A stretch of DNA of 64,000 bases, from positions 208,784 through 272,783 of the forward strand of contig JBPOHN010000012.1 of NCBI GenBank assembly GCA_052035525.1, in the 5' to 3' direction. A program made the position numbers and the translations under genes. How positions within the stretch are numbered: position 1 is the stretch's first letter; every line of letters starts with the position of its first letter. Origin of the DNA: Armatimonadota bacterium. Lineage in GTDB: Bacteria > Armatimonadota > UBA5829. The notes under the pieces were generated by a model that had not been told where the DNA came from, did no database searches, and was given only the letters and a program-made list of their open reading frames with translations. This document shows, in pieces, positions 19,407 through 38,500 of the stretch.

Positions 19407-19436
19407 CTGGGTGGCGATTCTCGGATCGCCACCCAG
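19407..19436. repeat. REP-like palindrome, copy 1 (CTGGGTGGCGAT-tctcgg-ATCGCCACCCAG)
   Basis: Perfect 12-bp arms. Same family as copies at 31294, 32496, 33149 and 36232. Confidence 0.6.
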
Positions 19437-29046: not shown

Positions 29047-31065
29047 ATGCTTTCCAAAAACGCCGAAGTAATACTGAACCTCGTAATGGACGCAGACGAG
29101 CGCACCGAGGGAATGATGCCCGGTTGGGACATCGAACTCGCGCGCCAGAAGCTCCTCTTCTTCACTCTGCCAAAGGATTTCGCCTCAGACTTCCAGGCTA
29201 TCACTACCGCGCTGGATGCCAAGTTCGCCGGGAGCGGTTCGGCGCTTCGCGAGCGCTGCATATCATTCATGCTCGGCGTTGCTGAGTCACTCAGTTCACC
29301 TGTTGAGCTCGATCACAACCTCAAAGCCAGACCCCTCCACGGCGATGCCGCCCTCAAGTGCGTCAAGGACATCAAAGAGGCGGCGGCCGCGCTCGTGACC
29401 AAATGGGCGGGAATAGACAAGCAGGCGTTCCTCGCGGTTACAGCGCTCATCAAGCTTGAGGACATTGCCGCAAACAAGGGCGACAACCTCTTCGCCGGCT
29501 GGGCCCGCAAGTGGCAGAGCGATACCGGCCGCGACGCCTACGCGTCCCCCGAGGATTACCTCTCCTGCTTCACCGGCCTCTATCAGCGAGGCATGTATTA
29601 TCCGGACCTCTACTTCGCGCGCGAAGAAGGCAAGACCAAGACCCAGTTCTTCAACGACTACGGTCTTCAGGCCTCTCGCTGCCGCAGGATGGGCAGTCTC
29701 GGCGGTACAACGAACCCCGCGATTGCAGTAATGGGCGAGGACGATATGTCCGGCAAGGGCAACATCTGGGGCGAAGAGGCCACCAACTACATCCTCAAGT
29801 TCCCGAACAAGTGGCACGAGGTCCGCAGGGTCATCGCCCGGGAGCAGAAGGCGCGAAACGAAGCAGACGACTGGGGCGCTGTGAAGTTCACGGAGTGGGT
29901 CGTGGTGGACGCGATGCTCGGCCTGCGCTCGATCTTCCTCCTTCGCGGCTTGGGACGCGTGGCATTCCAGCTCAGGCCGGACTGGCACAACGACGAGAAG
30001 AAGCTCACCTGCGCCGGCGCGCAGATATACGAAATACTATGCGAGCGCGTCAGCGAGTTCGACGATATCCTCCTGGACGGCGCGGATGATCTCTATGTCA
30101 ACGCCTGCGGGGAGCGAATGGGAAAAGCCAACAACCACTTCAAGATCGCCTGCACGGGCCAGGCCTGCCTCAATACGGTCCGCAGCTTCAACGCGGGCTA
30201 CTCGGAGGCGTATCCGGACGCGGTCAAGGAGCGCATGTTCACGAACGTGACGCTCTCATACGAAGTCCCGCAGATGTACGCCGCCTCAATGGCCACCGAA
30301 AACGGCATCCGCGACTACGAAAAACGCACCGGTGAGAAGGTGGACGACGGCGAGGGCGGATCGGTCGTGACCAGCATGATCGGCCGCTTCAACGACGCAA
30401 TCCGCGACTATCGCGTGAAGGCGATCCTGGCGGCCCTGCCCGAGACGAGCGAGTTCAAGAAGATAGACCCGGCTTCAGTCAAGAAGCTCACCGATCAAGC
30501 GATCAACGATCCGGGCCTGATCGCGGAACTTGCCTCGGCGGGCATAGACTTCCGCCCGGAGGAAGAGGAGGACGCAATCGACCGCGCGGGCACGCTGGCG
30601 ACAAAGCGGGTCGTGATTCTCCTCGAGAAAGCAGGAGCCGGCGCTCCACTGCCTACTCCCCCCCTTGCGAAGGGGGGGCCGGGGGGGGTGCGCACCCGCA
30701 TCCTGACCGCCTCCAAGCGCAACTTCTTCCAGAACACGGAACTCCTCGACGTGCCGTTCTCAACCGACTTCGGCAACATCCAGCGGATGTATATGGACGT
30801 AATGCCGCTGGAGATCGACAACTGGAAGACGCTCTACGCGGACATGGACGAAAACGGCTACCCGGTCCCCGGCAGCATCTGGGCGAAGCGCCACGAAACG
30901 CTGCAGCGCATCTGGCCGGACTGGAACAAGTGCTTCGACTCCCCCGACGGGGTCAAACCCGAGGAATACGAAACGGCCTGCTACGTCGCGCCCACGCTCA
31001 AGCAGTTCATAGGCATGTGGAACGACAACATCGCCAGGGCGAAATCCTTCGCCGAGAGCGTGTAA
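29047..31065 (+). CDS. Hypothetical 672-aa protein with a transaldolase-like segment (GGTTNPAI ... ILKFP); carries an in-frame poly-C/G hairpin insertion
   Basis: TTNP motif followed ~40 aa later by ILKFPNK, similar to the transaldolase/FSA TTNPSL ... IKIP(K) pair. 30658-30688 encodes PLPTPPLAKGGPGGVRTR from a repeat element. Confidence 0.45.
   Translation: MLSKNAEVILNLVMDADERTEGMMPGWDIELARQKLLFFTLPKDFASDFQAITTALDAKFAGSGSALRERCISFMLGVAESLSSPVELDHNLKARPLHGDAALKCVKDIKEAAAALVTKWAGIDKQAFLAVTALIKLEDIAANKGDNLFAGWARKWQSDTGRDAYASPEDYLSCFTGLYQRGMYYPDLYFAREEGKTKTQFFNDYGLQASRCRRMGSLGGTTNPAIAVMGEDDMSGKGNIWGEEATNYILKFPNKWHEVRRVIAREQKARNEADDWGAVKFTEWVVVDAMLGLRSIFLLRGLGRVAFQLRPDWHNDEKKLTCAGAQIYEILCERVSEFDDILLDGADDLYVNACGERMGKANNHFKIACTGQACLNTVRSFNAGYSEAYPDAVKERMFTNVTLSYEVPQMYAASMATENGIRDYEKRTGEKVDDGEGGSVVTSMIGRFNDAIRDYRVKAILAALPETSEFKKIDPASVKKLTDQAINDPGLIAELASAGIDFRPEEEEDAIDRAGTLATKRVVILLEKAGAGAPLPTPPLAKGGPGGVRTRILTASKRNFFQNTELLDVPFSTDFGNIQRMYMDVMPLEIDNWKTLYADMDENGYPVPGSIWAKRHETLQRIWPDWNKCFDSPDGVKPEEYETACYVAPTLKQFIGMWNDNIARAKSFAESV
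30658..30688. repeat. Poly-C/poly-G hairpin element, copy A (C7-TTGCGAA-G7-CC-G8), inside a CDS
   Basis: Same architecture as copies at 31215-31250 and 52371-52401. Confidence 0.6.
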
Positions 31066-31214
31066 GAGACTCAGACGACGTTGCCAAGGGGGCTTCCCCC
31101 AGGAGTGTGTAAGAGCCGTCGGAGCCTGTAGGAGCCGCGACAGCGTGTAGGAACCCAAAGCATCTCGTCATCCCGAGCGGAGCGAGGGATCTGCCTGAGC
31201 GTGGACTCTGCTTG

Positions 31215-31250
31215 CTCCCTCCCCTGACGAAGGGGAGGGTGGGGGGGGGG
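31215..31250. repeat. Poly-C/poly-G hairpin element, copy B (CTCCCTCCCC-TGACGAA-GGGGAGGG-T-G10)
   Basis: Intergenic, downstream of the 29047 gene. Confidence 0.55.
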
Positions 31251-31293
31251 TAACGACACGCTGCGGCGCTACCTGTGACCGAAAGAATGCTAT

Positions 31294-31321
31294 CTGGGTG
31301 GCGATTTCCGAATCACCACCC
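31294..31321. repeat. REP-like palindrome, copy 2 (CTGGGTGGCGATTTCCGAATCACCACCC)
   Basis: Direct observation. Confidence 0.6.
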
Positions 31322-31394
31322 TCCCGTCAGCGTTGACAGACAACGCCAGCCGCGTGATAATGCACATGCACACCGCCGGCGCGCGAGGAGTCCT

Positions 31395-32453
31395 ATGACC
31401 ACTGACGATGAGTTCGGCACCATCCAGGAACTGGCACAACTCGTGGATGAGGCCTATGACGAGCAGCGTTGGGACGACGTCATCCGCCATTCCGATCAGC
31501 TCACCGGGCATCTGGAGGGAAACGCGCTCCGCAGCCTCCTCCAATTACGCGGGCACGCGTTCGAGCACAAGGGCGAGCACGCCAGGGCGCGGCAGTGCTA
31601 TGAGGCTGTCCTCAAGCTGCCGGCTGACGAGAGCACGGGGGATACGTGGTACGCGCTGGGGAACGCGTATTGCGAGAGCGGCGATCACGACAAGGCCCTG
31701 GAGAGCTATAGCAAGGCCCTTGACACTCCAGGTTTCACGCAACCGGGCATGGCGCTGGAGAACATGGGTGTTGCGCTGTTTCGCAAGGGCGGCTACGCGG
31801 CCGCAATCGAGCATTTCCAAAGGGCGTTGGACACCCCCGGCTGTGAGGGCGCAGGGAGCCTCTGGTGCGCAATGGGCGATGCGCATGCGGAACTCGGCGA
31901 GATTGCTGCTGCCATCGAGTGCTATGAGACAGCCGCGGCGGCGCCGGGATACGCGGATCGCGGAACAGCATGCTTCAACCTGGGCCACACGCTGAACAAG
32001 GCCGGCGATTACGACAGAGCCATCGAAAGTTGCCACAAAGCTCTCGAAGCCGGTTACGACAGTCCCGGACGCGCCTGGCAGAACATGGGCATATCCTACG
32101 GCAGGAAAGGCGATCTTCACAAAGCCATCGACTGCTATCGGGAGGCGCTTCGCGCCCCCGGTTGTGATAACGCCGGCACCGTCTGGTTCAACATGGGCGC
32201 CTGCCACCTGGAGCAGGGAGACTACGACCAGGCGATCGAATGCAACCTCAAAGCGCTCGACACCCCTGGCTTCCAGCACGAAACCGACGCCTGGAACAAC
32301 CTCGGCACGTGCTACCACCGCAAAGGTAACCTCGCCAAAACCAAAGAATGCTACGCTAAGGCCGACGGCGACACGAACGCCAAAACCAACCCGTCCCCCG
32401 CACCCGGCATTCTCTCCCGGATCATCTCCACCCTCCGCAACTGGCTGAGATAG
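31395..32453 (+). CDS. TPR-repeat protein (seven ~40-aa repeats)
   Basis: Repeated W.N.G......GDYD.AIE.Y..AL..PG units. Start taken at MTTDDEFG because upstream codons overlap the REP copy. Confidence 0.75.
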   Translation: MTTDDEFGTIQELAQLVDEAYDEQRWDDVIRHSDQLTGHLEGNALRSLLQLRGHAFEHKGEHARARQCYEAVLKLPADESTGDTWYALGNAYCESGDHDKALESYSKALDTPGFTQPGMALENMGVALFRKGGYAAAIEHFQRALDTPGCEGAGSLWCAMGDAHAELGEIAAAIECYETAAAAPGYADRGTACFNLGHTLNKAGDYDRAIESCHKALEAGYDSPGRAWQNMGISYGRKGDLHKAIDCYREALRAPGCDNAGTVWFNMGACHLEQGDYDQAIECNLKALDTPGFQHETDAWNNLGTCYHRKGNLAKTKECYAKADGDTNAKTNPSPAPGILSRIISTLRNWLR

Positions 32454-32495
32454 TGGCCTGCTGCGCGCGGGTATCTTGGGCGAGGCGATTCTTCT

Positions 32496-32554
32496 CTGGG
32501 TGGTGATTTCCGAATCACCACCCTACAACCCCACGGGAGGGATTTCCGAATCCC
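32496..32554. repeat. REP-like palindromes, copy 3 (CTGGGTGGTGATTTCCGAATCACCACCC, 32496-32523) plus mini-copy GGGATTTCCGAATCCC (32539-32554)
   Basis: Immediately upstream of the RAYT gene. Confidence 0.6.
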
Positions 32555-32572
32555 GCGTCTAACCCCCACCCA

Positions 32573-33115
32573 ATGGCAAACCGATACAAGGTCATCCAGG
32601 GAGGTCCCTATCCGCACCTGATCACTTGCACGATTGTCAGGTGGCTCCCCGTGTTCATCTCGGGCCCGTACTTCCGCGTGCTCACCGACAGCCTCCGGCA
32701 CTTGCGGGAAAACCGAGGCCTGATGATCCATGCGTATGTGATAATGCCCACCCACCTGCACGCCATAGTCACCGCGACCGAGGACGACCTGTCAGATATC
32801 GTGCGCGACTTCAAGAAGTTCACGTCCAGAGCGATCTACGAGCTTGCCGAGCAGTCAGGCAACGTCCTGCTTACGTGGATGTTCGAGCAGGCGGCAAAGA
32901 AGCAGCCTCACAGCCGCTTCAAGGTCTGGCAGGACGAGTTCCACCCCAAGGCTCTGTCCGGTGAGGAGATGATGAGGCAGAAGGCGGAGTATGTGCACGC
33001 GAATCCGGTTCGCAAAGAGCTGGTTATGGAGCCGGAGAAGTGGTATTACTCGAGCGCATCATTCTACGCGGGGAAAGCGACCGGGCCCGTGCCAATCGAC
33101 GTGCCTGAGTGGTAG
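32573..33115 (+). mobile_element. REP-associated tyrosine transposase (RAYT; IS200/IS605 TnpA-like Y1 HUH transposase)
   Basis: HUH motif IMPTHLHAIV and catalytic Tyr region EKWYYSSASFY. 180 aa; flanked on both sides by REP palindromes. Confidence 0.8.
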
Positions 33116-33120
33116 CTGTG

Positions 33121-33172
33121 CCGGATTCGGAAATCCGGCTGGAGCAGTGGGGTGGCGATTCGGAAACCGCGG
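33121..33172. repeat. REP-like elements, copy 4 (CCGGATTCGGAAATCCGG at 33121-33138, plus degenerate GGGGTGGCGATTCGGAAACCGCGG at 33149-33172)
   Basis: Immediately downstream of the RAYT gene. Confidence 0.5.
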
Positions 33173-33248
33173 TTCTGACGAGAAGGCAAGATAGGATTGG
33201 GTGACGAAGCAGAGGCTAGTCTAGCCGGTCTATTCGCTCGCCAATTAG

Positions 33249-34130
33249 CTATCCCGCGAATCTTGGGTCCGGCGCCAGATCCTTGACACGAGGGAGCACA
33301 CCCGCGTATGGGTACTGACCTATGCTGCCGCGCAGAACGAGCGGCATCGTGTTCGGAGAGTCTCGGTAGAAGGCAACCATGGTCGCCATATCACCGTACC
33401 CCAGTCCAGCGCTATCATTGATCATCGTGCACAGCTCCGTAAGACGGTCCTTCAAGACTTCATCGAGAACGGCTCCGTGTGGGTGTAGCGGCCTTTCTGC
33501 CTTGGAGTGAATTCGCGCGGTATAGATGTCTAGTCCCAGCTTCCTGTAGATTACACCGTATGCCTCCTCTGCGATGCACGGGACTAACAGGAACTCGGAG
33601 AATCGTCCTAGAATGCATTCACGCATTCTACTGTAGTGAGCGGTGAATTGCTTACCTGTGGAACAGAAGTCATCAACGTAGACGATGGCACCGTTTTTGA
33701 CCTTCTGGGTCAACTTTGCGAAGTCGGAGGCGTTGGAGTCCACGAAGTGACACTTCAGCCGCTCAAGCCGCCCAAGCCGCCCAGCTCGCTTTAGCAGATC
33801 CAACATTACGGGGCTACTGCTCGCCGCGTCATGAACCTGCACATAGATCACGTTCGCTGGCGCAATACCATCCCGCTGAAGTTCCTCTAGCAGGGCTGTG
33901 TTTTGCGTCACAAGCGCGTCTGCGGTCGCTTTCCTGGAATAGTAGATCACATGATCCAGTAGAAGTAACAAAGCGTGCCAATCCTTGACGTCAAACTTGC
34001 GCAGCCACTGCATGACCGATGCGTGGGTAACGGGCTGCGGCTCATAGTCAGGGAAACGCCGTGCTACCCGCCACGCTCTGTACATCATCGTTGCCGTGTT
34101 CAGCAGCCTAACGTAGCCAACACTCATCAT
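33249..34130 (-). CDS. PRTase-fold domain protein, function unknown (third gene of the Dam/ParB-like operon)
   Basis: PRPP-loop-like GAIVYVDDFCSTGKQF. Start ambiguous between 34130 (MMSVGY) and 34088 (MMYRAW). A paralogue-like motif occurs in the 12262-13161 protein. Confidence 0.5.
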   Translation of the reverse strand: MMSVGYVRLLNTATMMYRAWRVARRFPDYEPQPVTHASVMQWLRKFDVKDWHALLLLLDHVIYYSRKATADALVTQNTALLEELQRDGIAPANVIYVQVHDAASSSPVMLDLLKRAGRLGRLERLKCHFVDSNASDFAKLTQKVKNGAIVYVDDFCSTGKQFTAHYSRMRECILGRFSEFLLVPCIAEEAYGVIYRKLGLDIYTARIHSKAERPLHPHGAVLDEVLKDRLTELCTMINDSAGLGYGDMATMVAFYRDSPNTMPLVLRGSIGQYPYAGVLPRVKDLAPDPRFAG

Positions 34131-35148
34131 CGTCTTCGGCGGGTTCGTCCCCCGCAGCCAATCTCGCGAGCAGAGTATCAACGTAAGCTCTGACCTGCTC
34201 TAGCGCATCCACAAGCTCCTGCCTCTGATCAACAGTGTACTCAAGCTTATAGCGGTCCAGTGCCTGCCTGAAAGAGGTGCACGCGTTCAGGGCTGTCTGC
34301 GTCTGCCGACCCTCGGTGACGAACTCGTCGAAGGCCATTCTGGTCTCCAAATCCATGTTCAGTATGTATTCCCTTAGACGTGCTTTTACCGCCTCCAAGC
34401 GCGCTGGATCCTCACGGCTAAAGGCGAAAGCCTCCAGGATCCTCCGGAAGTGTATGACGCTCTTGATTTTCCCCGCTCGCTTCTTAGCAACCAACCTATC
34501 CGTGATGTTGTCGCGCCCACCGCATTCTGCCACAAACTCCGGCATCTGCTCCTCACACAGCGAGAGGACTGGGTGTGCTTCTATCCAGAAGTTGGATGCC
34601 ACGCGCTCGTTCTTGTCCGGCAGCAACGATAGAGCCTGGAAGCGTTCGGGGAACTGCAGCAGGATCATGCACCGCTCGAGTTGCTGCTCGCTTGCACCGG
34701 TCAACTTTGCCAAGGTCTTGACGTCTGTCTCCTTGAGTTCCTCCATCACAGCTTTTAGGCTTAGGGCAGTTGGCATCAATTCCCACTGCTCCCGCAGACT
34801 ATGGATAGAGAACATATAGAGAAGATTGGCAGCGGTCGAAGGCGGATCGACAACGTTCGCGGGTATTCTGATGTCGTGCCCTTCCTCGCTGAGTTCGCAG
34901 CAGCACTTGTACCTTCGCTCACCGTCGAGTATGGCGTGCTTGCTTTGCCCAGCAGGCATATACACTGTAAGCGGCACTAGCACTCCGTGTTGCGCGATGC
35001 TCCTCTTGAGTTCATCCAGCGGCTCACGGTCAAACAGACGCCGCGGGTTGTATGGGCTGGGCCTGATGTCCTGGGGGCGTAGGTCCTTAAGTGTGCCGGT
35101 AGGCACAACACGTTCCGGCGTATTCGCTCTTGCTCTGCTAAACAACAT
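34108..35148 (-). CDS. ParB/Srx-fold (ParB N-terminal domain) protein
   Basis: DIRPSPYNPRRL...LDELKRSIAQHGVLVPLTVY...ILDGERRYK gives ParB box I and the box II GERRxR arginine patch. The C-terminal 200 aa are unassigned. Confidence 0.7.
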   Translation of the reverse strand: MLFSRARANTPERVVPTGTLKDLRPQDIRPSPYNPRRLFDREPLDELKRSIAQHGVLVPLTVYMPAGQSKHAILDGERRYKCCCELSEEGHDIRIPANVVDPPSTAANLLYMFSIHSLREQWELMPTALSLKAVMEELKETDVKTLAKLTGASEQQLERCMILLQFPERFQALSLLPDKNERVASNFWIEAHPVLSLCEEQMPEFVAECGGRDNITDRLVAKKRAGKIKSVIHFRRILEAFAFSREDPARLEAVKARLREYILNMDLETRMAFDEFVTEGRQTQTALNACTSFRQALDRYKLEYTVDQRQELVDALEQVRAYVDTLLARLAAGDEPAEDDDECWLR

Positions 35149-35980
35149 GGCTCTGTAACCTCCGCGCGCCAGGCGTGGTGTTGTATATCAGCACCTCACC
35201 GGACTCTCCACGCCTCGCAGCGAATCCGGCGATATTTCGTTTCACTGTTACCTTTTCGGCCTCAAAGTCTTTTCGAAGAGCTTCGGCTTCGGCACAATCC
35301 GCGTAGCTGACTAGAAACGCAATGTTCCTCTCGGCTAACGACTCCATCCAGAAACGCAGCCGTGCGAGATCACTGGGGCCAAACACGGTAGGGTTGTATT
35401 CCGCGAACACCCGTCGGTTGGCTACACTGAAAGGCGGGTCCATATACACAAAATCCCCGGGCTCTGCCAGCTTCAGCACCCCCTCAAAGTCGCCCTGCAC
35501 AAGCCGCGCTGTCCGCAGCAGCCTGGAGCACTCGGACAATGTACCCGGAGAAGGGAGATTGCCCGCCTTATCTCCACCATAAGGCACGTTGAATTGGCCT
35601 GCCGCGTTGGTTCGGTACAGCCCGTTGAAGCAAAACCTGTTCAGATAGATGAACCGTGCGGCCCGTTCCGACGGGGTAAGCCGTTCTGGGTCAAGACTGC
35701 GAAGGCGTAAGTACTCCTCACGGCCTTTTTTCAGCCGAAGCAGATGTTCGGCAACGACGGCGGCTTCCTTCTTGATCGCGCGGTACGTCTGGATCAACTC
35801 CGCGTTAGCATCGCCCAACAGGGCTTTCCTAGGCCGCAGCCTGAAATAGAGGCATGCAGAACCGGCAAACGGTTCCAGGTAGCGGTCGTACCCGTCACAC
35901 CAGTAGCGCTCTAGGATCGGCAGAAGCTGCCGCTTACTGCCAGCCCACCGCAGGAAAGGTTGTGCTCGACTCGCACTCAC
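35138..35980 (-). CDS. Dam-family (D12 class) N6-adenine DNA methyltransferase
   Basis: FLRWAGSKRQLLPILERY (motif I region), DPPF (motif IV), and ...NRFCFNGLYR... Start moved to GTG 35980 because the long-ORF N-terminus overlaps a REP copy. Confidence 0.75.
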   Translation of the reverse strand: MSASRAQPFLRWAGSKRQLLPILERYWCDGYDRYLEPFAGSACLYFRLRPRKALLGDANAELIQTYRAIKKEAAVVAEHLLRLKKGREEYLRLRSLDPERLTPSERAARFIYLNRFCFNGLYRTNAAGQFNVPYGGDKAGNLPSPGTLSECSRLLRTARLVQGDFEGVLKLAEPGDFVYMDPPFSVANRRVFAEYNPTVFGPSDLARLRFWMESLAERNIAFLVSYADCAEAEALRKDFEAEKVTVKRNIAGFAARRGESGEVLIYNTTPGARRLQSHVV

Positions 35981-36231
35981 TCGGTCCCCCAAGCTCTTGG
36001 GCCCGCCGCTGCTCTTGGTCCAGATGCCAGGCGGCCGCTCACAGAACGATCTATGGCAGTATAGTCGAATCGTGCCACCTTTGCAAGCGGGCACTTGGTG
36101 GCGAACTTGGTGGCGAACGCGCATAGGCAAATGCCAATCACTTCGCTGCTTGGGACAGAACAACAGCCTGAGCACAGAGGTGGGGACGCCCATGACCCGG
36201 CGGCAGAAGCGGCGGGTTCTTCCTCTTCCCT

Positions 36232-36259
36232 GGGGTGGCGATTTCGGAATAGCCACCCC
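36232..36259. repeat. REP-like palindrome, copy 5 (GGGGTGGCGATTTCGGAATAGCCACCCC)
   Basis: Direct observation. Together with copy 4 it brackets the Dam/ParB-like/PRTase operon. Confidence 0.6.
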
Positions 36260-36595
36260 ACAACCGCGCAATTGACGGCGGTTTCCCCTCAAAACAAACC
36301 GTAACACGGGCAAAAAAGTGCATTTGCGTGCATTTGGGCGCAAAAGGGTGCCGTTTCATACAATCGTCAACCGATTTCACCGAATCCCTGGCCGATTGAT
36401 CTCGCCCGCCCACTCCCTCGTTCACAATTCCAGCCCCACCTGCCCACGCCCCATCCATTGCTCCACGCTCAGACACCCCGTAATGCCGCACACAGACAAT
36501 CCAAACTCTACAATCTAAAATCATCAATCCCTCTGGTTCGTTCCTTCGCCCCGCCAGTTCGTTCCCCCGCCCCGCCCGGCCCCTCCGCGTCCAAT

Positions 36596-36658
36596 CTGCA
36601 ATCACAGATCCAAAATCTGCAATCGACTGTCGACAACCGCCAGTTAACATGCTATACT
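36596..36658 (+). promoter_or_regulatory. Near-consensus promoter TCGACA-17-TATACT (36630-36658) preceded by direct repeats AATCTGCAATC x2, 22 bp apart
   Basis: -35 at 36630-36635, -10 at 36653-36658. It drives a ~185-nt leader containing a 10-bp inverted repeat (AACAAACTCA ... TGAGTTTGTT, 36758-36815) before the EEP gene. Confidence 0.45.
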
Positions 36659-36850
36659 GTCTGCATGAACAACCGAGCACACACAACCACCACTCCTTCC
36701 CACCTCGCAGCCTTCGACTTGGAGCTTGCCACTCCCGCAAGGGATAATGTTGCAAAACAAACTCAATCACTGCGGCATCTGAGCGTGAAACAGCCTCGCC
36801 TGAGCGTGAGTTTGTTCCATGCATTACGAACTCATAAGGGCTGGTTCACG

Positions 36851-37672
36851 ATGCAATGCCTTGCCCTGATCGTGCTCGTCATCCTCTCCATCCCCGCCTG
36901 CGCCGTCGATGGGACTAGACTCACGGTGATGACCTACAACATCGAGTACGGCGCGGGAGTCGATCAGGAAGAGGCTAAGATCGCGGAACGGGCAAGCAAA
37001 GGGCAGCGCGCGGGGAATCGGCTGGATCGGGTCATCGCCGTTATCAAGCACGTGAACCCGGACATACTTGGCATCCAGGAGGCCTGCTCGTGGGACAAGA
37101 ACGACGAGGCGGTGGCGAAGCGGGTCGCGCGGGAACTCGGAATGCACTACTACCTGGCAAAGTCCGGCCAGAGCCGCTTCAACGTCGCGCTCTACAGCAA
37201 GCTGCCGATAGTGTCCGCGAAGGGCTTCCCGGATCACTTCACCCGAGCCGCCCTGCAGGCGGAGTTGAAACTCCCCGATGGACGCCCGCTGCACGTCTTT
37301 GTGACGCACTTCAACCTCCTCAGAAACGAGGACAGCCAACTGAGCGAGATACGCTACCTCGCCGCCCAGATGAGGCCGCACGCGTTCGATCTCGCCACCA
37401 TGATGGGTGACGCCAACTTCAAGTATGGCATCCACAAACCGCACACCGGCGCGCTTCGGGCATCGGGGTTTCTGATCGCGCCGCAGGTCGGCGAGCGGAT
37501 CGACCAGATCTGGACCTCCAGGCCGCTCGAAAAGCACGTAAGCGACGGCCCGGCGATCCCTGCCGAACTGACGAAGAACACCTCCGATCACCGGCCGACC
37601 GTGATCGTATTGAGCATACCGCACGCTGCGGCGACCGAGGGTCCCAGGACTGCCAATGGAGGGCGCAAATAG
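36851..37672 (+). CDS. Secreted endonuclease/exonuclease/phosphatase (EEP) family protein
   Basis: Signal peptide MQCLALIVLVILSIPACA, then TVMTYNIEYG...LGIQEA...HVFVTHFN...SDHRP (EEP motifs). The long-ORF N-extension (36458-36850) is rejected. Confidence 0.75.
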   Translation: MQCLALIVLVILSIPACAVDGTRLTVMTYNIEYGAGVDQEEAKIAERASKGQRAGNRLDRVIAVIKHVNPDILGIQEACSWDKNDEAVAKRVARELGMHYYLAKSGQSRFNVALYSKLPIVSAKGFPDHFTRAALQAELKLPDGRPLHVFVTHFNLLRNEDSQLSEIRYLAAQMRPHAFDLATMMGDANFKYGIHKPHTGALRASGFLIAPQVGERIDQIWTSRPLEKHVSDGPAIPAELTKNTSDHRPTVIVLSIPHAAATEGPRTANGGRK

Positions 37673-38500
37673 ATGACAAAGGAAGTATCACCTGCACTGC
37701 CGCAAATGACGGCCATAGCTCCCACGATATGCGAGACCATGGGCGTATCCTCGCGAGATTGTCACGGAGCGGCCCCGCTGCCGGGGATCCTTGATGCCGC
37801 GCGGCGGCTGGAAGGCCCTGTCGAGCGGTACCTGATAGTCGCCGGTGACGCTATCGGGGTCGAGCAGCTCACGAGGTATCCGGATGTCGCCGAAACGCTC
37901 TCACAGGCAGCTCCCGAAGCCGTCACCCTACGCGCGATGTCGCCCTCGGTCACGCCGGTCTGCTTCGGCTCCATGTTCAGCGGCGCGACCCCCGGTGTGC
38001 ACGGCATCACGGAGTATCGCAAGCCGGTGCTCACGGTCAGCACCATCTTCGACATCCTTCCCGCGGCGGGCAAGAGGGTCGCAATCGCGGCGGTGCCGGG
38101 ATGCAGCATGGACACGATATTCCGCAACCGGCCGATCACCTACTTCACCGAGCCCGACGACGACCACGTCCTCGACCGCGCGCTGAAGCTGCTGGAAGAG
38201 GATGCCTACGATTGCTTCGTGGCCTACTTCATCGGCTACGACAGCGCGCTGCACCGCACGACCCCGTGGAGCGAGGAAGCGATCTCAGCGATGCGGCAGG
38301 TCGCGCGGCGCTTCGAGCAGTTGGGCCGGGCGATCGATGAGCTGCCCTGGCGGCGGTTCAATCGCGCCATCCACTTCGCGCCCGATCACGGCGCGCACAT
38401 CGGCGAGAACGGCAAAGGCACCCACGGCTCAGACCTGCCGGATGATATGATAGTGCGGCACTACTTCGCCTTCCGCCCGGCAGATGCTGCCGCGCAATGA
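37673..38500 (+). CDS. Alkaline-phosphatase-superfamily (type I phosphodiesterase / nucleotide pyrophosphatase-like) protein
   Basis: ~275 aa with metal-ligand-like D/H positions (DHGAH near the C-terminus); adjacent to the EEP gene. Confidence 0.5.
   Translation: MTKEVSPALPQMTAIAPTICETMGVSSRDCHGAAPLPGILDAARRLEGPVERYLIVAGDAIGVEQLTRYPDVAETLSQAAPEAVTLRAMSPSVTPVCFGSMFSGATPGVHGITEYRKPVLTVSTIFDILPAAGKRVAIAAVPGCSMDTIFRNRPITYFTEPDDDHVLDRALKLLEEDAYDCFVAYFIGYDSALHRTTPWSEEAISAMRQVARRFEQLGRAIDELPWRRFNRAIHFAPDHGAHIGENGKGTHGSDLPDDMIVRHYFAFRPADAAAQ

Follow-up and report, generated by a model that had tools for sequence, protein, structure and literature searches.

A REP-associated tyrosine transposase with two-hairpin repeats and a methylase/ParB/PRTase cassette in a variable slot of an Armatimonadota genome

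Contents of the locus

The window analysed was a stretch of 64,000 nucleotides (64 kb) from an Armatimonadota bacterium (contig JBPOHN010000012.1, positions 208,784 to 272,783). Between a conserved gene for a protein of 672 amino acids (aa) and a phosphodiesterase gene, it contained a slot with a gene for a TPR-repeat protein, a REPtron, a three-gene cassette and a gene of the Exo_endo_phos family. A REPtron is a gene for a REP-associated tyrosine transposase (RAYT, also TnpAREP) together with flanking repetitive extragenic palindromes (REPs), and the cassette encoded a DNA methylase, a ParB-like protein and a phosphoribosyltransferase (PRTase). In an initial annotation the transposase, the three-gene operon and copies of a palindrome had been described as one small REP-RAYT island. 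Most probably the slot holds two unrelated things, namely a REPtron that spreads REPs and a horizontally acquired cassette that likely targets nucleotides.

The REPtron and the REPs around it were as follows (GC3, G+C content at third codon positions).

32496-32554, plus strand: left REPtron flank with hairpin A (32498-32523) and hairpin B (GGGATT-TCCG-AATCCC, 32539-32554); fold -18.7 kcal/mol, z = -5.2
32573-33115, plus strand: RAYT/TnpAREP gene, 180 aa, with H61-L62-H63 and Y140-V-H-A-N-P; GC3 0.81; one copy in the window
33120-33177, minus strand: right REPtron flank with hairpin B' (CCGGATT-TCCG-AATCCGG, 33120-33139) and hairpin A' (33150-33175), the outer arm of A' eroded
31294-31323, plus strand: REP copy 1 (hairpin A) with the conserved CT before it; its position is common to the relative L173
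36231-36260, plus strand: REP copy 4 (CTGGGGTGGCGATT-TCGG-AATAGCCACCCC), in the long upstream spacer of the operon; fold -12.6 kcal/mol, z = -4.9
19407-19436, plus strand: outlying REP copy (CTGGGTGGCGAT-TCTCGG-ATCGCCACCCAG), intergenic, before the start of a gene; fold -15.7 kcal/mol, z = -7.5

The transposase and its flanks

The 180-aa protein passed the NCBI curated equivalog model for REP-associated tyrosine transposases (NF047646, 111.2 bits, cutoff 80) and failed the IS200 model (NF033573, 19.2 bits versus a cutoff of 55), and in Pfam only the generic Y1_Tnp family was found (PF01797, 26 bits, cutoff 23). The closest solved structure by sequence was E. coli TnpAREP (PDB 4er8, E = 3e-8); in this alignment H61-L62-H63 fell on the HUH motif (HMH), and Y140 in AEYVHANPV fell on Y115 in DYIYINPV. 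The protein also had W119-Q120 and Y140-VHA-N144-P145. Class 2 (TnpAREP-like) proteins are marked by WQ/WE and YxxxNP motifs, and class 1 (IS200) proteins by Y...Q (PMC6006769); the motifs of the 180-aa protein were ambiguous for the subclass and lay between 2.5 and 2.6 of that classification. Judged by its family, the protein is a RAYT/TnpAREP and a predicted HUH/Y1 single-strand DNA endonuclease. The assignment first made from the HLH motif and a catalytic Tyr was thus upheld, and the profile comparison with an ordinary IS200 TnpA fell on the RAYT side.

Only one copy of the gene was detected in the window by tblastn. An identical protein was encoded by 24 public contigs, with the gene order unchanged in all 10 of the contexts listed. 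Among Armatimonadota, orthologues of about 180 aa formed a series with identities falling from 82% to 54%; each turned up on one or two contigs, and one of them already carries the NCBI name REP-associated tyrosine transposase.

Both hairpins of the left flank, A and B, pointed toward the RAYT gene, so that the layout was [A>B>] at 32498/32539, the gene, and [<B<A] at 33120/33150. Such inverted REP flanks define a REPtron, and the pair enclosing the RAYT gene was the sole inverted REP pair in the window. The gene had been placed exactly between palindrome copies 3 and 4; it does lie between the copies at 32498 and 33150, and this numbering requires that the copy at 19.4 kb be counted first.

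Three RAYT orthologues (in L169, L170 and L171, with 69%, 68% and 57% identity) stood in three unrelated neighbourhoods on long contigs, and their hairpin flanks were identical in arrangement to those of the window REPtron. In the alignments with these loci the similarity started at CTGGGTGG on the left and stopped at CCACCCAG on the right, with nothing in common outside.

A unit so sharply bounded, whose gene neighbourhood differs in each of four genomes, could also be an active IS200/IS605-like insertion sequence (IS) that moves as a whole, with the hairpins as its ends and solitary hairpins as deletion derivatives, that is, miniature inverted-repeat transposable elements. The generic Y1_Tnp match in Pfam would agree with it. 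With IS200/IS605 elements the protein has in common a distantly related Y1 HUH fold (PDB 2xm3, E = 0.003) and, as expected from its family, hairpin-dependent single-strand chemistry. However, the protein failed the IS200 model and passed the RAYT model, and its tyrosine motif was the YxxxNP of class 2 rather than the Y...Q of class 1. The two ends were identical inverted hairpins, whereas in IS200/IS605 elements the left and right ends differ and are direct. The gene was single-copy in the window, each cluster of orthologues was confined to one or two contigs, and gene-free hairpins far outnumbered the genes. Moreover, the neighbourhoods compared came from genomes diverged enough for ordinary rearrangement. 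The IS explanation is therefore considered improbable, and a REPtron is preferred.

Further, distant RAYT genes (25-30% identity) were observed in the metagenome-assembled genome (MAG) MFD01112.bin.2.36, at L049:300-1250, L102:4600-5600 and L061:1950-2860. Here the flanking hairpins were of another family (GTTTCGGGA...TCCCGAAAC), so one genome holds several RAYT-REP pairs; that more distant RAYT genes in the same MAGs have different hairpins fits cognate pairing of enzyme and repeat.

At L169:1379-2571 the orthologue with 69% identity adjoined a gene with an NmeDI_C domain and a truncated D12 methylase gene. The product of the latter was 45% identical to the window methylase over its first 116 residues, giving a second REPtron beside a methylase-containing module.

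The palindromes in the window

The palindrome scored was GGGTGGCGATT-TCCG-AATCGCCACCC, with 100 shuffles as the control. It matched exactly at 31296-31321, with one mismatch at 32498-32523, and with three mismatches at 36233-36258, and by the shuffles no match at all was expected. A family consensus, GGGTGGCGATTTCCGAATCGCCACCC, was then derived from related genomes and used in a Hamming scan of the window with at most five mismatches and 50 Markov shuffles. Five loci were found (19409, 31296, 32498, 33150 on the minus strand, and 36233), and none of the 50 shuffles gave a match. Four of the five lay inside 5 kb. The copy at 33150 had five mismatches to the consensus, its outer arm being eroded. 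The copy at 19409-19434 had three, and it kept the 10-bp stem of the others with a different loop. It confirmed the fifth copy that had been proposed near 19407.

The 12-nt apex GATTTCCGAATC occurred five times, always between 31.3 and 33.2 kb, versus 0.3 expected. The apex scan also revealed two shorter hairpins with the apex GATT-TCCG-AATC, at 32539-32554 (plus) and 33120-33139 (minus), which had been overlooked before. These are the hairpins B and B' of the REPtron. The palindrome was rightly recognised as a REP-like repeat, although its actual unit consists of two hairpins, A and B.

For all copies stable single-stranded DNA hairpins were predicted (z from -2.9 to -7.5). It had also been stated that four palindromes occupy every intergenic spacer between 31.3 and 36.3 kb, and this holds because the three operon genes overlap one another.

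The repeat family in related genomes

One genome per species was scanned with the exact pattern. The repeat was found in at least 117 stretches, nearly all from Armatimonadota MAGs; the rare matches in other phyla had other loops and looked like chance. Among the matches listed, eight species-level Armatimonadota genomes each had 5 to 37 separate 8-kb blocks with the exact repeat. The palindrome is thus dispersed and not confined to this locus, as was already indicated by the copy 12 kb away in the window. The association of a REP with a RAYT, as initially proposed, is supported on both sides, by a transposase that passes the RAYT model and by a palindrome that is found elsewhere.

From 110 oriented copies in related genomes, the consensus of hairpin A was tctTTtCT-GGGTGGCGATT-TCCG-AATCGCCACCC, followed by a spacer of about 11 nt and then hairpin B, cGGGATT-TCCG-AATCCCg. 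Hairpin B was located 31-34 nt downstream of A in 49 of these copies. CT was conserved directly 5' of hairpin A (consensus tCTGGGTGG).

The architectures in the relatives included 58 singlets, 39 direct A-B doublets, 22 convergent clusters and one divergent pair. By type the convergent clusters comprised nine '++--', seven '++-' and six '+-', versus one '-+', and their polarity was the same as that around the window RAYT gene.

Alternatively, the palindromes might serve as common regulatory hairpins, terminators or protein-binding sites and be functionally unrelated to the 180-aa gene. They are intergenic and have stable stems, and in other bacteria REPs also contribute, as a secondary function, to mRNA stability and protein binding (PMC6006769). 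However, no T tract was present in any REP and none was called terminator-like in a terminator scan. The palindromes stood before as well as after genes, and in either orientation. In addition, identical sequence flanked the RAYT orthologues of four genomes, even where the proteins had diverged to 57%, and presence or absence of a REP was polymorphic at an orthologous site (below). A role only as ordinary hairpins is hardly credible on this evidence, and the REPtron with its dispersed repeats is retained.

Comparison with known REPtrons and REPINs

REPtrons have been described in E. coli, Stenotrophomonas and Marinomonas (Nunvar 2010; Ton-Hoang 2012, PMC3333891; Corneloup 2021, PMC8266576). 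As in these systems, a HUH/Y1 protein with YxxxNP, single-copy in the window, was found here between inverted flanks made of a hairpin that is also dispersed in related genomes, and the stems form perfect palindromes like those of the 'group 3' examples. The conserved CT at the hairpin foot corresponds to the CT at which other REPtrons are cleaved in vitro. The locus differed from them in its host phylum, Armatimonadota, in the context of the HUH motif (T-H-L-H versus D/N-H-x-H), and in a repeat built as a direct doublet, whose two stems differ while their apex, GATT-TCCG-AATC, is identical.

REPINs (Bertels and Rainey 2011, PMC3116915) were resembled by the gene-free convergent pairs in relatives (22 convergent clusters versus 1 divergent), whose polarity matched that of the RAYT flanks. 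In contrast to REPINs, each arm here was an A-B unit of two hairpins, giving four hairpins in the full element, and singlets and direct doublets were commoner than inverted pairs.

By analogy with its family, the RAYT would bind folded single-stranded hairpins, probably via the common apex GATT-TCCG-AATC, would cleave at the conserved CT that marks the foot of hairpin A, and would then rejoin the strands. In this way singlets, A-B doublets and convergent, REPIN-like quadruplets could be spread through intergenic DNA, while the gene itself stays single-copy. The REPs at 31296, 36233 and 19409 would then be dispersed progeny.

The variable slot and its surroundings

The slot and its remaining features were as follows.

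31066-37672, no strand: entire variable slot, bounded by the conserved 672-aa gene on the left and the phosphodiesterase gene on the right
31215-31239, plus strand: G+C-rich hairpin (CTCCCTCCCCT-GACGA-AGGGGAGGG) following the 672-aa gene; the equivalent hairpin of L173 precedes a REP
31395-32453, plus strand: TPR-repeat protein gene, 352 aa; Pfam TPR_1 176 bits; GC3 0.76, a native-like codon composition
36851-37672, plus strand: Exo_endo_phos-family gene, 273 aa; PF03372 58.4 bits; the right-most gene of the slot, absent from L172 and L173

A promoter-like site was predicted before the TPR gene at 31333-31361 (promoter scan, 11/12).

Synteny anchored on the left, with the 672-aa protein against metagenome contigs, could not alone show an insertion. 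Similarity to the window ended at about 31.06 kb in 33 metagenome loci that shared the block of peptidase, LacI and 672-aa genes. With the phosphodiesterase as the right anchor, two relatives, L172 and L173, were found. In L172 (flank identity 79-96% at the aa level) the 672-aa gene was followed by a spacer of 78 nt and the phosphodiesterase gene, that is, an empty site. In L173 (79-95%) the slot was filled by two unrelated genes (824 and 616 aa), neither with a family in a Pfam search, together with a G+C-rich hairpin and a REP. The left-edge hairpin plus REP (31215-31321) thus had a position common to the window and L173. The empty site in one relative and the alternative genes in the other delimit a variable slot at 31.07-37.67 kb.

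The accessory character of the island was in this way supported by synteny, although its bounds are those of the slot, including the Exo_endo_phos gene, and not 31.2-36.3 kb. The description of the surroundings as housekeeping did not hold, since the flanks consist of conserved accessory genes (a LacI regulator, the 672-aa protein, the phosphodiesterase and an acyl-CoA-ligase-like gene).

In both L172 and L173 the phosphodiesterase gene had a REP at its 3' end, and this REP was cleanly absent in the window, with the flanks well aligned. Gain or loss of a REP at this orthologous position is thereby shown directly. The REPtron was also absent from the matching site of these close relatives, which an IS moving whole would explain; however, the empty site of L172 lacks 6.6 kb and not merely the 0.7-kb unit.

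Some further observations concerned the edges of the slot. The phosphodiesterase at L172:555-1403 was only 79% identical to that of the window (37673-38500), with neighbours at 93-96%; the lower identity at the slot edge suggests recombination or faster evolution. The 672-aa protein (29047-31065) always followed a LacI-type regulator and was found at 55-83% identity on many Armatimonadota contigs, and no family was assigned to it in Pfam or NCBIfam. At 31176-31210 a 17-nt tandem unit, GAGCGAGGGATCTGCCT, was present twice in the window and three times in most other assemblies. A run of ten G at 31238-31250 reads GGTTGGGGTGGGG elsewhere, and in the window it may be an assembly or homopolymer artefact.

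About 870 nt between the methylase and Exo_endo_phos genes (35981-36850) were without a convincing gene and were C-rich, with a GC skew down to -0.34. Besides REP copy 4, short CAATCTGCAATC-like repeats and, at about 36372, a degenerate apex GATTTCaCCGAATC were located in this region. A minus-strand open reading frame (ORF) of 228 aa called there by gene finders had no family and looks spurious, and the region had no Rfam match.

The methylase/ParB/PRTase cassette

The three genes of the cassette, on the minus strand, overlapped one another.

33249-34130, minus strand: PRTase-CE gene, 293 aa as called (ORF to 34181); PF24390 77.3 bits (cutoff 27); GC3 0.65; predicted effector
34108-35148, minus strand: ParB/Noc-like protein, 346 aa; PF02195 48.6 bits; N-terminal ParB domain and a helix-turn-helix (HTH) region
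35138-35980, minus strand: Dam-family N6-adenine DNA methyltransferase (D12 class); TIGR00571 194 bits; PF02086 133.5 bits; PADLOC MTase_II 226 bits

In the PRTase, the PRPP-binding motif Y151-V-D-D-F...G159 was invariant among 22 homologues, and homologues outside the species had at most about 50% identity. Its predicted model (predicted local distance difference test score 87) matched type I PRTase folds. It was also similar to the PADLOC model PRTase_III-A, which covers type III-A retron effectors (E = 2e-16). The 'CE' in the PF24390 name 'PRTase-CE' stands for 'conflict effector' (PMC12871103).

Residues 19-173 of the ParB-like protein aligned with Spo0J/Noc (6sdk, E = 6e-13), including the GERR motif and the HTH region; its C-terminal half of about 170 aa was unique.

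The methylase probably starts at the GTG at 35980, which gives a typical length of 280 aa and is preceded by the ribosome-binding site GGGGGA, so that the ATG at 36193 chosen by the gene callers, and the long ORF, would be artefacts. A promoter-like site for the methylase was found at 36086-36058 in the promoter scan.

A C>T change at 35900 (codon 148 of the ORF 35138-36343) created the stop W148*, upstream of the S-adenosylmethionine-binding motif, in three of ten retrieved assemblies (L118, L120 and L124), and the ParB and PRTase genes of these assemblies were unchanged. The three assemblies are independent. A methylase-null subpopulation therefore exists, and loss of the methylase is tolerated.

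The gene order methylase, ParB, PRTase was kept in seven independent loci (L161, L162, L165, L167, L174/175, L176 and L177), some of them on prophage-like contigs; four IMG/VR contigs accounted for three distinct loci of the seven, and an eighth locus was truncated by insertion sequences. The three proteins co-diverged at 41-59% identity across loci. Elsewhere, the cassette had as neighbours a resolvase, Mrr, an integrase, a phage capsid protein, NurA-HerA and BrnTA. Its GC3 was 0.64-0.67, versus 0.73-0.82 for the neighbouring genes and 0.81 for the RAYT gene, and neither a REP nor a REP core was present in nine other loci with the cassette or a remnant of it. The foreign GC3 and the conserved, REP-free loci indicate a separate, horizontally acquired module. 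Thus the operon does lie between palindrome copies, as initially described, but it is an independent mobile cassette with no link to REPs elsewhere rather than a part of a REP-RAYT island.

Beside the cassette in L165 (1103-3814), the other strand encoded a second ParB_N protein, a 286-aa protein and Mrr; an integrase gene and phage capsid genes also occurred there. Within L161 (2515-4014) a gene for a 499-aa HAD-family hydrolase overlapped the methylase start, like a fourth operon member.

A composite element was considered in this connection, in which the REPs at 33150 and 36233 would be its ends, the segment 32.5-36.3 kb would be one RAYT-driven island, and the cassette would have been mobilised or captured. 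The cassette is indeed bracketed by REPs of opposite orientation, the eroded hairpin A' abuts DNA of foreign composition, and the RAYT orthologue of L169 likewise adjoins a restriction-modification remnant with a D12 methylase. On the other side stand the nine REP-free loci, the resolvase, integrase and prophage genes beside the cassette in other lineages, and the difference in codon composition between the RAYT gene and the cassette. REPs also occupied most local intergenic spacers whatever their content, including those around the native-like TPR gene. A composite element is accordingly thought quite improbable, and two unrelated units in one slot are preferred.

Predicted function of the cassette

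The cassette PRTase belongs to PF24390 and is linked to a protein of the ParB superfamily, as in the PRTase-CE/ParB conflict systems, and like them the cassette occurs in defence-island-like and prophage contexts. It differs from them in the lack of an antitoxin-like partner, in its fixed partners, a Dam-type methylase and a Noc/Spo0J-like ParB, and in its absence from PADLOC 2023. PF24390 is related to PRTase effectors found in type III-A retrons, ShosTA and Ophion. The cassette PRTase resembles the retron III-A effectors, whereas the cassette is without a reverse transcriptase or a non-coding RNA. A retron was rejected, with no reverse-transcriptase domain in the neighbouring genes and no Rfam match in 30.5-37.5 kb.

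The Dam-family methylase in a compact mobile operon, with its PADLOC MTase_II match, is reminiscent of type II restriction-modification. Unlike in such systems, no recognisable endonuclease was present and natural methylase-null variants keep the other two genes. The classical type II system was rejected as well, the methylase being present and no restriction endonuclease family being detected.

Nicastro et al. are reported to have predicted in 2023 that PRTase-CE and special versions of ParB are nucleotide-degrading immune effectors. A literature search for the methylase/ParB/PRTase-CE triad yielded no description and no experimental work. The cassette is probably a nucleotide-targeting anti-phage defence system, in which methylation would act as a self mark or a signal, the ParB-like protein, a predicted binder of NTP and DNA, as a sensor or co-effector, and the PRTase as an effector on nucleotide pools.

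Weighing the two-unit interpretation

Several points weigh against a REPtron and a nucleotide-targeting cassette side by side. For the REPtron, the right hairpin A' is eroded. No free, canonical 5' GTAG foot was obvious, in which the locus differs from known REPtrons; a GTGG is instead buried in the stem of hairpin A, 2 nt inside, and hairpin B is without any GT[AG]G. Only one REP was found in the 59 kb of the window outside the slot, and a high REP copy number in the source genome is inferred from relatives. At the 33 loci of more distant relatives (672-aa protein at 55-75% identity) no REP was present, so the repeat family is patchy.

For the cassette, no nuclease or classical restriction partner was detected with Pfam and PADLOC, there was no PADLOC model for the ParB-like protein, and the PRTase gave no tblastn match in phage and plasmid collections. 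W148* together with intact ParB and PRTase genes argues against a simple design in which methylation protects self, or it points to decay of the system. Even with these points, the interpretation as two unrelated units is held with good confidence.

A broader proposal is that REPtrons in this lineage may still relocate as sharply bounded 0.7-kb units, that they or their single-strand hairpins may seed slots that capture defence cassettes, and, separately, that the methylase of the triad is dispensable for self-tolerance, so that methylated nucleotides would be a signal rather than a protective mark. A D12-methylase defence module adjoined the RAYT gene in two of the four loci examined, and the hairpin beside the foreign cassette is eroded. 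This proposal is regarded as rather unlikely at present.

Significance

The RAYT/REP unit belongs to a known kind and leaves current concepts unchanged; what distinguishes it is the repeat with two stems and one apex and the Armatimonadota host. REP-RAYT systems have been studied almost only in Proteobacteria, and this locus provides a well-delimited example from Armatimonadota. The unusual architecture of two different stems with one apex leads to a simple, testable prediction of enzyme recognition, and natural comparisons are at hand in the empty site, the alternative filling and the gain or loss of a REP between orthologous positions. As a conserved and mobile unit, the cassette is a candidate immune system, and its natural methylase knockout could inform self-tolerance.

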